Shown piece by piece: positions 9,385-50,749 of a stretch of 64,000 nucleotides of DNA. The translations under genes and the position numbers were made by a program. Positions within the stretch are counted from its first letter, which is position 1. The number at the start of each line of letters is the position of its first letter. A model generated the notes under the pieces. That model was not told where the DNA came from. It searched no databases and saw only the letters and a program-made list of their open reading frames with translations. The stretch lies in assembly GCF_054482595.1 (NCBI RefSeq), contig NZ_CM137008.1; one strand, given 5' to 3'.

Positions 9385-9701
9385 TACCGCTTTATCCGCA
9401 AGACCTGGTCGCCAGTATTCGTTTCTGTGTTTATGCTAGTACAAAAGTTTTACATTTTATATGCGAATTGCTCATAAAGTGACGTAAAGGCGGATAATTT
9501 GCGCAACTGCGTATAACATTTTTTACCTTACATAAAACTGATCAATGTAATTTGCCACCGGGAATTCTTCGTCAACAATTAACTCTGAGCGCGCGGCAAC
9601 GCTATTCGACTGGTATCAGGCGGATGAAATCCCTATAATTGCCGCGTTTGGCGCTTCGTCGCCCCCTTCCTAACATCCAGGTTAATCAGGTCGCTAAATA
9701 T

Positions 9702-47217: not shown

Positions 47218-48624
47218 ATGTCAAAGCAACAGATTGGCGTCGTCGGTATGGCAGTGATGGGGCGCAACCTTGCGCTCAACATCGAAAGCCGTGGTTATAC
47301 CGTCTCTATTTTCAACCGTTCCCGTGAAAAGACGGAAGAAGTGATTGCCGAAAATCCAGGCAAAAAACTGGTTCCTTACTATACGGTGAAAGAGTTTGTT
47401 GAATCTCTGGAAACGCCTCGTCGCATCCTGTTAATGGTGAAAGCAGGTGCAGGCACGGATGCTGCTATTGATTCCCTCAAGCCATACCTCGATAAAGGTG
47501 ACATCATCATTGATGGTGGTAATACTTTCTTCCAGGACACCATTCGTCGTAACCGTGAACTTTCTGCCGAAGGCTTTAACTTCATTGGTACCGGTGTTTC
47601 CGGTGGTGAAGAAGGCGCGCTGAAAGGGCCTTCCATTATGCCTGGTGGCCAGAAAGAAGCCTATGAACTGGTTGCACCGATCCTCACCAAAATCGCCGCA
47701 GTGGCTGAAGACGGTGAGCCATGCGTTACCTATATTGGTGCCGATGGAGCAGGTCACTATGTGAAGATGGTTCACAACGGTATTGAATACGGCGATATGC
47801 AGCTGATTGCTGAAGCCTATTCTCTGCTTAAAGGTGGCCTGAATCTTTCCAACGAAGAACTGGCGCAGACGTTTACCGAGTGGAATAACGGTGAACTGAG
47901 CAGCTACCTGATCGACATCACCAAAGATATCTTCACCAAAAAAGATGAAGACGGTAACTACCTGGTTGATGTGATTCTGGATGAAGCAGCAAACAAAGGT
48001 ACGGGCAAATGGACCAGCCAGAGTGCGCTGGATCTCGGCGAACCGTTGTCGCTGATTACCGAGTCTGTGTTTGCTCGTTATATCTCTTCTCTGAAAGATC
48101 AGCGTGTTGCCGCATCTAAAGTTCTCTCTGGCCCGCAAGCACAGCCAGCAGGCGACAAGGCTGAGTTCATCGAAAAAGTTCGTCGTGCGCTGTATCTGGG
48201 CAAAATCGTTTCTTACGCCCAGGGCTTCTCTCAGCTGCGTGCTGCGTCTGAAGAGTACAACTGGGATCTGAACTACGGCGAAATCGCGAAGATTTTCCGT
48301 GCTGGTTGCATCATCCGTGCGCAGTTCCTGCAGAAAATCACCGATGCATACGCCGAAAATCCGCAGATCGCTAACCTGCTGCTGGCTCCGTACTTCAAGC
48401 AAATTGCCGATGACTACCAGCAGGCGCTGCGCGATGTCGTCGCTTATGCGGTACAGAACGGTATCCCGGTTCCGACCTTCGCCGCTGCGGTTGCCTATTA
48501 TGACAGCTACCGCGCCGCAGTTCTGCCTGCGAACCTGATCCAGGCACAGCGTGACTATTTCGGTGCGCATACTTATAAGCGCATTGATAAAGAAGGTGTG
48601 TTCCATACCGAATGGTTGGATTAA
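47218..48624 (+). CDS. gnd: 6-phosphogluconate dehydrogenase (decarboxylating)
   Basis: 468-aa [22 protein letters not shown]-binding motif. Confidence 0.95.
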
Positions 48625-48650
48625 TCTGATCTAACCAACAATAAATTTAG

Positions 48651-48678
48651 GCCCGGCGTATATTGCGCCGGGCTTTTT
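48651..48678 (+). terminator. GC-rich hairpin plus T-run after gnd (gnd terminator or IS200 left-end terminator)
   Basis: gcccggcg / cgccgggc stem with 7-nt loop, then TTTTT. Confidence 0.6.
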
Positions 48679-48821
48679 GTGCACAGAAAACCCCCAGCTA
48701 GGCTGGGGGTTCCGGAAAGCTATCAGCTTTGAGCCAGTTATTAAAACCCCTTTTGATTTGTTAAAACACCTTGCGGTCTGGCAACTGCAAGTGTCAAACA
48801 AGAAATCAAAAGGGGGTCCCA

Positions 48822-49280
48822 ATGGGGAACGAAAAGAGCTTAGCGCACACCCGATGGAACTGTAAATATCACATAGTTTTTGCGCCAAAATACTGAAGAC
48901 AAGTGTTCTACAGAGAGAAACGTAGAGCAATAGGCAGTATTTTGAGAAAGCTGTGTGAGTGGAAAAGCGTACGGATTCTTGAAACTGAATGCTGTGCAGA
49001 TCATATCCATATGCTTGTGGAGAGCCCGCCCAAAATGAGCGTATCCGGCTTTATGGGATATCTGAAAGGGAAAAGCAGTCTGATGCTTTACGAGCAGTTT
49101 GATGATTTGAAATTCAAATACAGGAACAGGGAGTTCTGGTGCAGAGGGTACTACGTCGATACGGTGGGTAAGAACACGGCGAAGATACAGGATTACATAA
49201 AGCACCAGCTTGAAGAGGATAAAATGGGAGAGCAGTTATCGATTCCCTATCCGGGCAGCCCGTTTACGGGCCGTAAGTAA
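48822..49280 (+). pseudogene. tnpA: IS200 tnpA (Y1 HuH transposase) interrupted by an in-frame TGA at codon 25
   Basis: MGNEKSLAHTRWNCKYHIVFAPKY, TGA at 48894-48896, then the same frame continues through HIHMLVE (HuH motif) to the stop at 49280. Confidence 0.75.
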
Positions 49281-49361
49281 CGAAGTTGGATGCAAATGTC
49301 AGATCGTGTGCGCCTGTTAGGGCGCGGCTGGTAAGAGAGCCTTATAGGCGCATTTGAAAAA

Positions 49362-49392
49362 CCTCCGGCTATGCCGGAGGATATTTATTTTT
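49362..49392 (+). terminator. Hairpin plus T-run at the IS200-like right end
   Basis: cctccggc / gccggagg stem with 3-nt loop, followed by atatttattttt. Confidence 0.55.
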
Positions 49393-49573
49393 GCCAATTA
49401 TCTTATAGACTAAATTTCACTGCTTAATATTAACTTAATAAATATCAGCTATTCTTATAAAGAAAATCTGAATTGTTTTTCGTTGCGTTGACCATCTGAC
49501 AACGTAGCGTTAAAACTTTTAGCTCTTATCAGGATGCTAAAAACATCATGATTCACAGTTAAGTTAATTCTGA

Positions 49574-50749
<1,176 letters not shown>

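Follow-up and report, generated by a model that had tools for sequence, protein, structure and literature searches.

Whether a transposase gene is held silent by the structure of its own messenger RNA is the question raised by a pair of complementary segments immediately upstream of a tnpA start codon in the stretch of 64,000 nucleotides analysed here (hereafter, the window). An earlier note, made from the sequence alone, had proposed that these segments form a long-range stem burying the Shine-Dalgarno (SD) region, had read the arrangement as the known translational repression architecture of IS200, and had named RNA folding and conservation among other IS200 copies as the checks of that reading. 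We asked what the element is, what the repeat pairs with and in which strand it acts, and how far its conservation extends.

Results

An IS200 element between gnd and ugd

The map of open reading frames, together with a search against complete E. coli genomes, places the window in the E. coli chromosome. The gene order there is gnd (47218-48624), IS200, ugd (49583-50749), all on the + strand, and the element lies next to the O-antigen cluster. Comparison with the unoccupied spacer of strain XJ34 locates the insertion in the T-run that follows the terminator hairpin of gnd.

48651-48678, + strand: intrinsic terminator of gnd, hairpin GCCCGGCG...CGCCGGGC plus T-run; host sequence outside the element, and the insertion target
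48679-49389, + strand: IS200 element, IS200C-like, about 709-711 bp, delimited against the empty gnd-ugd site of strain XJ34
48822-49283, + strand: tnpA, a Y1 HUH transposase gene made a pseudogene by the in-frame stop TGA at 48894-48896

Elements of the IS200 group insert without target-site duplication. The empty site in XJ34 reads GGGC-T8-GCCAA, with eight T against the five plus five that flank the element here (right flank 49388-49392), a difference compatible with a duplication of 0-2 nt in a T-run of variable length. Because the insertion falls within this run, the ends of the element are fixed only to about 2 nt. A T-run followed by a TTGT-like sequence also stands immediately 5' of the left end in many other IS200-group loci. 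The sequences suggest that IS200 prefers the T-tracts of terminators as insertion sites. Rfam matches to Leu_leader and isrJ at 48610-48678 were rejected, as they fall below threshold and mirror the gnd terminator hairpin.

The segment 48679-49389 is identified by its sequence as an IS200 of the IS200 group, IS200/IS605 family. It has the expected length of about 700-710 bp, lacks terminal inverted repeats, carries subterminal hairpins at both ends (48689-48711 and 49360-49382), and encodes a single Y1 (HUH) transposase that matches Pfam PF01797 (Y1_Tnp). An intact copy, annotated in RefSeq as an intact IS200C transposase and occupying the same gnd-ugd site in another strain, is 98% identical to the window copy; identity to Salmonella IS200F is 91%.

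The transposase gene is broken by a premature stop, since translation and comparison with the intact IS200C give TGA (48894-48896) in place of CGA at codon 25. The RefSeq annotation of an identical sequence in the one genome inspected, strain 210205630, likewise reads 'IS200/IS605 family transposase, internal stop', and the identical 851-bp sequence is present in at least 11 complete E. coli genomes, those of strains 210205630, EC71 and XH989 among them. The remnant reading frame (48903-49280) still scores 96.4 bits against PF01797, compared with 130.7 bits for the intact allele and a cut-off of 23. Relative to intact IS200C, the coding sequence has 8 substitutions in 459 nt (the TGA at codon 25 and seven others), and the 5' UTR has a single loop-base difference in 143 nt; these differences are too few to show selection. 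With tnpA a pseudogene, no functional transposase is left to repress in the window copy, and any repression of it is vestigial.

A perfect stem over the Shine-Dalgarno sequence

The earlier note had paired CCCCTTTTGAT (48747-48757) with ATCAAAAGGGG (48805-48815) and had placed the tnpA ATG at 48822. The two segments are exact reverse complements at exactly these coordinates, and the ATG is read at 48822-48824; the extent of the pairing had been understated, as it is perfect over 13 bp (48747-48759 with 48803-48815). In a repeat search the arms lengthen to 16 nt (48747-48762 and 48800-48815) at 94% complementarity with one bulge.

48747-48759, + strand: 5' arm of the lower stem (anti-SD arm), CCCCUUUUGAUUU; its first seven positions, 48747-48753, correspond to -75 to -69 of the published LS mutant
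48803-48815, + strand: 3' arm of the lower stem, AAAUCAAAAGGGG, holding the first six SD bases
48810-48817, + strand: tnpA Shine-Dalgarno sequence, AAGGGGGU, the same SD as named in PMC4513863

Six of the eight bases of AAGGGGGU, AAGGGG, thus lie inside the 3' arm. A perfect 11-mer inverted repeat is not significant by itself: dinucleotide-shuffled 64-kb windows hold 1.6 +/- 1.3 perfect inverted repeats of at least 11 nt within 120 nt, and the real window holds 8. The significance of the stem comes instead from the placement of the repeat exactly over the SD, from the fold z-scores, from covariation in 72 loci and from the Rfam match described below.

The predicted fold buries the ribosome-binding site

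RNA folding of 48680-48830, 48717-48850 (roughly the reported tnpA transcript) and 48740-48824 paired 48747-48759 with 48803-48815 in both the minimum free energy structure and the centroid of all three segments. The SD was buried throughout, in agreement with the expectation of the earlier note, with a predicted pairing probability of 0.89 for the SD core of the window copy. The folds are far more stable than those of shuffled sequences, with z-scores of -5.34 (48740-48824), -4.27 (48717-48850) and -4.54 (48680-48830) and none of 200 shuffles as stable. The predicted structure comprises the 13-bp lower stem, two more pairs, an upper stem and a 4-bp mini-hairpin that presents the AUG, and a small hairpin precedes it.

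48716-48730, + strand: small hairpin AAAGCU-AUC-AGCUUU, found in the fold and as a helix of Rfam STnc490, spanning the position (about IS200 nt 40) at which tnpA transcription reportedly begins
48766-48794, + strand: upper stem, 48766-48777 with 48784-48794, and apical loop CUGGCA (48778-48783), found in the fold; 6 of the 7 pairs of this helix (helix 4) covary
48817-48828, + strand: AUG mini-hairpin UCCC-AAUG-GGGA with the AUG (48822-48824) in its loop, found in the folds and in the covariation of helix 5

Conservation and covariation of the stem

Salmonella IS200F and Yersinia IS1541A carry both arms of the lower stem unchanged. Among 5426 complete E. coli genomes, 2449 contain the 91-nt stem-loop, at 9409 places in total and mostly with 99% identity or more; over this region the window copy and intact copies have the same sequence (100% identity). 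A wider sample came from a scan, guided by protein sequence, of a single genome for each species, which returned 80 loci with close TnpA relatives from Enterobacterales, Vibrio, Desulfovibrio, Sutterella and many Clostridia. When thirteen proteobacterial copies and one from Bacillota were aligned, the arms were either identical or changed together, as the reading proposed in the earlier note would have it. The arms of the Vibrio copy are TTTCAAT and ATTGAAA where the window has TTTTGAT and ATCAAAA; the Bacillota copy has CTCC and GGAG in place of CCCC and GGGG, and GGGGG/CCCC becomes GGAGG/CTCC among distant copies.

A covariance model built from this alignment found the structure upstream of tnpA in 72 loci, from Enterobacterales, Vibrio and Clostridia, at E < 1e-7. 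In the helix that contains the SD (helix 3), all 15 pairs show compensatory changes on both sides and 93.8% of cells are paired. Taken over the structure as a whole, standard pairs occupy 92.7% of cells, compared with 42-46% when the partners are slid by 1-3 columns, and none of 500 column shuffles reached the observed value. Helix 5, the AUG mini-hairpin, covaries at 5 of 5 pairs with 87% of cells paired; helix 2, the small hairpin at 48716-48730, is weakly supported, with only 76% of cells paired. The start codon of the mini-hairpin sits in a 4-nt loop and the 3' half of its stem is made of coding codons 2-3, yet all five pairs covary.

As the 72-locus alignment was fitted to the structure of the model, and is therefore biased towards it, each locus was also folded alone, free of any alignment. 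In 76 of 77 loci, the SD core was predicted to pair, at a mean probability above 0.5, with sequence lying 20 nt or more upstream. Mean SD pairing across the 77 loci was 0.83, against 0.36 when the upstream part was shuffled, a control value that is not very low because a G-rich SD finds partners easily. The complementary arms can also be read by eye in single sequences, as in CTCCTAATGTGT / ACACATTAGGAGG and CTCCGATTGTG / CACAATCGGAGG.

In a search of the literature, we met no specific earlier account of the structure in copies from Firmicutes. Rfam family RF01405 already scores above threshold in many of these copies, and we therefore do not claim the conservation across phyla as new. Two incidental Rfam matches were met in the Clostridia loci, a tRNA gene just upstream of the IS200-like element in one (L074, 344-416) and a cobalamin riboswitch just upstream of the element in another (L019, 153-288).

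RF01405 (STnc490) matches the window at 48689-48812 on the + strand with 144.4 bits (E = 1.2e-30; gathering score 56) over the full length of the model, positions 1-124. Its consensus structure holds the same three hairpins as the window, the lower-stem helix included, but the model ends at 48812 and so leaves the last SD bases and the AUG outside. The family models the tnpA-sense strand, including the terminator at nt 12-34, whereas the primary papers describe STnc490, now art200, as an RNA of about 90 nt antisense to tnpA. RF01405 as modelled appears to describe the tnpA 5' region rather than the RNA whose name it bears. In the window and in 20 other loci alike, the match always lay on the tnpA-sense strand.

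Hairpins at the ends of the element

The earlier note had also pointed to a second perfect hairpin, CCCCCAGC-TAG-GCTGGGGG, at 48691-48709. This hairpin is exact and again longer than described, with 10 perfect pairs between 48689-48698 and 48702-48711, and it has a counterpart at the right end.

48689-48711, + strand: left-end hairpin AACCCCCAGC-TAG-GCTGGGGGTT, equivalent to the published bidirectional terminator at IS200 nt 12-34
49360-49382, + strand: right-end hairpin AACCTCCGGC-TAT-GCCGGAGGAT, terminator-like on both strands, the counterpart of the left-end hairpin

The left-end hairpin folds at -18.7 kcal/mol (z = -3.6), is identical in Salmonella and Yersinia, and as helix 1 of the 72-locus alignment has compensatory changes in 6 of its 10 pairs, with 98% of cells paired. 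It is followed by only UU on the + strand and by UUUUCUGUG on the - strand. A terminator scan called it on neither strand; within the element region the scan called the right-end hairpin only. The right-end sequence AACCTCCGGCTATGCCGGAGGAT (49360-49382) is very similar to the left-end AACCCCCAGCTAGGCTGGGGGTT, and the differences are compensatory. In many loci the RNA covariance model also matches the right-end hairpin, through model positions 8-30. An AACC...GG(T/A)T frame is common to the left and right ends in the majority of 70 loci. Co-variation between the left and right hairpins of one and the same element was not clear, with an identity of 0.66 to the own partner and 0.63 to those of other elements, so that only a shared architecture is indicated.

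IS200/IS605 transposases act on single-stranded DNA hairpins. IS608 and ISDra2 resemble the present element in carrying similar GC-rich hairpins near both ends and in using a Y1 HUH transposase; the hairpins of IS200 are perfect where those of IS608 are imperfect palindromes, and IS200 lacks tnpB. By this analogy, the left- and right-end hairpins are likely the recognition hairpins of the Y1 transposase on single-stranded DNA.

Two further records of the element were met in the searches. A 713-bp circular Salmonella 'plasmid' record, NZ_CP149227.1, consists of one IS200F and nothing else; it is an artefact of assembly or, alternatively, an IS200F excised as a circle. At 1513-1664 of the E. coli IncF plasmid CP099047.1, near iss, the left end and 5' UTR of IS200 survive as a relic of 74% identity, which several IncF plasmids carry; no tnpA stands behind it and its anti-SD arm is degraded, and the RNA model still scores it at 73 bits.

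A putative antisense RNA and its promoter

In Salmonella, art200 (formerly STnc490) is a 90-nt antisense RNA that begins at nt 153/154 and ends at about nt 64 (PMC4513863). Setting nt 1 of the published numbering to 48679 places it from 48831 to about 48742 in the window.

48741-48831, - strand: putative art200 (STnc490) antisense RNA, about 90 nt, with positions transferred from the published nt 153/154 to about nt 64
48832-48868, - strand: putative art200 promoter, TTTACA, 18-nt spacer, TAAGCT, within tnpA codons 4-16, the assignment of the hexamers being our own

The predicted start lies opposite tnpA codons 3-4, and the predicted end follows a U-tract, the complement of the A-run at 48743-48746. 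On the minus strand, the promoter region does not differ from that of Salmonella IS200F, where the promoter is described as having a good -35 and a poor, 'almost unrecognizable' -10 element (PMC4513863). A generic sigma-70 scan of 48600-49450 returned no promoter on either strand, neither for tnpA nor for art200; both are called weak or atypical in the published accounts. From the identity of this region, art200 is probably still made from the window copy. At the level of sequence, the RNA module and the art200 promoter are intact in this copy although its transposase is dead.

Discussion

Our findings place the repeat at 48747-48757 / 48805-48815 in the lower stem of the tnpA 5'-UTR stem-loop of IS200 (about nt 69-138), which sequesters the SD, a reading to which we assign a probability of about 0.92. 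The inverted repeat at nt 69-138 was described by Beuzon, Marques & Casadesus (1999), as related in PMC4513863 and PMC2515195, and Ellis, Trussler & Haniford (2015; PMC4513863) set out the terminator hairpin at nt 12-34, the SD-sequestering repeat at nt 69-138 and a tnpA transcription start at about nt 40. In window coordinates these fall at 48690-48712, 48747-48816 and about 48718; conversely, the window stem 48747-48815 is nt 69-137, compared with the published 69-138. Sittka et al. 2008 (PMC2515195) and Trussler et al. 2025 (PMC12594629) reported the same architecture for IS200-group elements in general. The three papers, with the mutational proof among them, bear out the earlier note in its appeal to the known IS200 repression. 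That proof is the LS mutant of Salmonella IS200, altered at nt -75 to -69, which raised the 30S toeprint 20-fold in vitro and expression of a tnpA-lacZ fusion 50-fold, and which was still repressed by art200, such that the stem acts independently of the antisense RNA (PMC4513863). The bases altered in that mutant are CCCCTTT (48747-48753) in the window and in Salmonella IS200F alike.

The Salmonella element shares with the window copy the arms of the lower stem, the SD and its distance to the AUG, the upper stem, the CUGGCA loop, the nt 12-34 hairpin and the antisense promoter region. Set against its 91% overall identity are a few substitutions in the middle of the upper stem (ACC versus ATC; AAGTGTCAA versus AAAAGTTCA) and a nonsense codon in tnpA that only the window copy has. 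Occlusion of the ribosome-binding site combined with a cis antisense RNA (RNA-OUT) and with protection from outside transcription, through fold-back inhibition of read-through transcripts, is also how IS10/Tn10 and IS50 are controlled, a parallel drawn in PMC4513863. The sequences of those elements are unrelated, however, their transposases are of the DDE type, and IS200 hides its SD already in the native transcript and not only in read-through RNA.

For the mechanism that follows, the sequence, the fold, the covariation and the identity of the tested bases come from the present analysis and the translational repression from the literature, while the dual roles of the hairpins are those that we infer. 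The tnpA mRNA would start about 30 nt upstream of the stem, from a weak, undefined promoter by which the window copy is presumed to be transcribed. In this mRNA, CCCCUUUUGAUUU (48747-48759) would pair with AAAUCAAAAGGGG (48803-48815), and the SD AAGGGGGU would be locked in a 13-bp helix capped by a stem-loop, keeping the 30S subunit off and leaving the transposase barely translated. Read on the other strand, the same repeat would form the body and presumably the terminator of art200, which would act as a second, independent repressor. The left-end hairpin would serve as a terminator that blocks read-through from the host gene (gnd), and is probably also a hairpin bound by the transposase. In the window copy this repression module would persist as a conserved remnant, still able to make both RNAs, with a nonfunctional transposase behind it.

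A stem of this kind may also be kept chiefly as the scaffold of a stable, processed small RNA that acts in trans on host genes. In Salmonella, the 5'tnpA sRNA, a processed hairpin of about 100 nt, affects invF and the SPI-1 and flagellar regulons (PMC5435999, PMC12594629), and a scaffold would be the sole function remaining to a copy whose transposase is dead. The single changed loop base in the 5' UTR beside 8 coding substitutions, and the complete identity of the 91-nt region to intact copies, fit such a use, but the counts (1/143 and 8/459 nt) are too small to argue for selection. The known targets (invF, PinT and the SPI-1 regulon) are moreover specific to Salmonella, with none known in E. 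coli, and a mere scaffold would not need to keep the SD inside the helix, as 76 of 77 loci do. We consider this role possible, at odds well below even, and as one that would be added to SD sequestration rather than replace it.

A related thought concerns the apical loop. Its sequence C-U-G-(G/C)-C-A and the pairs that close it hardly vary between E. coli and Clostridia, with 65-70 of 72 loci invariant, in contrast to the free covariation of the lower stem, and this pattern implies a sequence-specific role. In Salmonella, this loop is the first contact of art200 on the tnpA mRNA (PMC4513863). The near-invariance of the loop, together with the untouched stem-loop, antisense promoter and ends of an element whose transposase is dead, leaves room for the module to be more than a brake on the transposase, through a host RNA or protein partner of the loop or through domestication of the 5'tnpA/art200 pair in E. 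coli. Host domestication of this pair has been proposed for Salmonella; for the window copy we regard either extension as rather doubtful.

A sequence that forms a stem in the sense RNA necessarily forms one in the antisense RNA too, so that conservation by itself does not tell which strand brings the selective benefit. The repeat might accordingly be kept for art200, as its body and intrinsic terminator (the stem plus UUUU), with the pairing of the SD a by-product. Folded on its own, the minus-strand RNA from 48830 to 48741 has a z-score of -4.7, and its last bases are GGGG-UUUUAA. The U-tract of the minus strand corresponds to an A-run 5' of the anti-SD arm that is present in 59 of 72 loci and sits at the reported 3' end of art200 near nt 64, and the promoter region is, as noted, that of Salmonella. 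From these sequence features, the SD-sequestering stem probably does double as the intrinsic terminator of art200. That this should be the reason for its conservation is unlikely, given that the LS mutations raise ribosome binding in vitro and leave repression by art200 in place (PMC4513863). The alignments point the same way: the 3' arm follows the SD even where the SD sequence differs between loci; 63 of 71 sequences carry a G-U pair in the upper stem that becomes a C-A mismatch on the other strand; and the sense strand folds more stably than the antisense in 57 of 71 loci. On the strength of this SD tracking, the G-U pair and the stability of the sense fold, we hold it more likely that selection acts mainly on the sense RNA.

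That the repeat is instead a DNA-level hairpin used by the Y1 transposase in peel-and-paste transposition is highly improbable. Hairpins of that type are used by the transposases of the family and are present in this element at 48689-48711 and 49360-49382; they are subterminal, short and alike at both ends, unlike a 69-nt internal stem-loop. Neither the repeat search nor the RNA model found a right-end counterpart of the long stem in the element, and both the G-U pair and the stem's coupling to the SD speak for RNA. Functionless chance complementarity, for which the roughly 1.6 perfect repeats of at least 11 nt within 120 nt expected per window could be cited, is rejected with negligible remaining probability, as this perfect 13-bp stem lies in a fold with z about -5, covaries in 72 loci across phyla and has mutational proof in Salmonella.

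The SD-sequestering stem was thus already known, described since 1999 and proven by mutation in 2015, and the feature in the window is real but ordinary. Its recognition from sequence alone in the earlier note identified a true regulatory RNA structure, and missed only that tnpA is a pseudogene. For annotation, 48679-49389 is best recorded as an IS200 with a dead transposase and an intact RNA module, and the 72-locus set provides clean cross-phylum covariation data for the SD helix. If the side observations hold, namely the invariant apical loop, the stem as antisense terminator and the strand of the Rfam model, they would lead to a refined model of how IS200, a very old element, is silenced and may point to reuse of its RNA module by the host.
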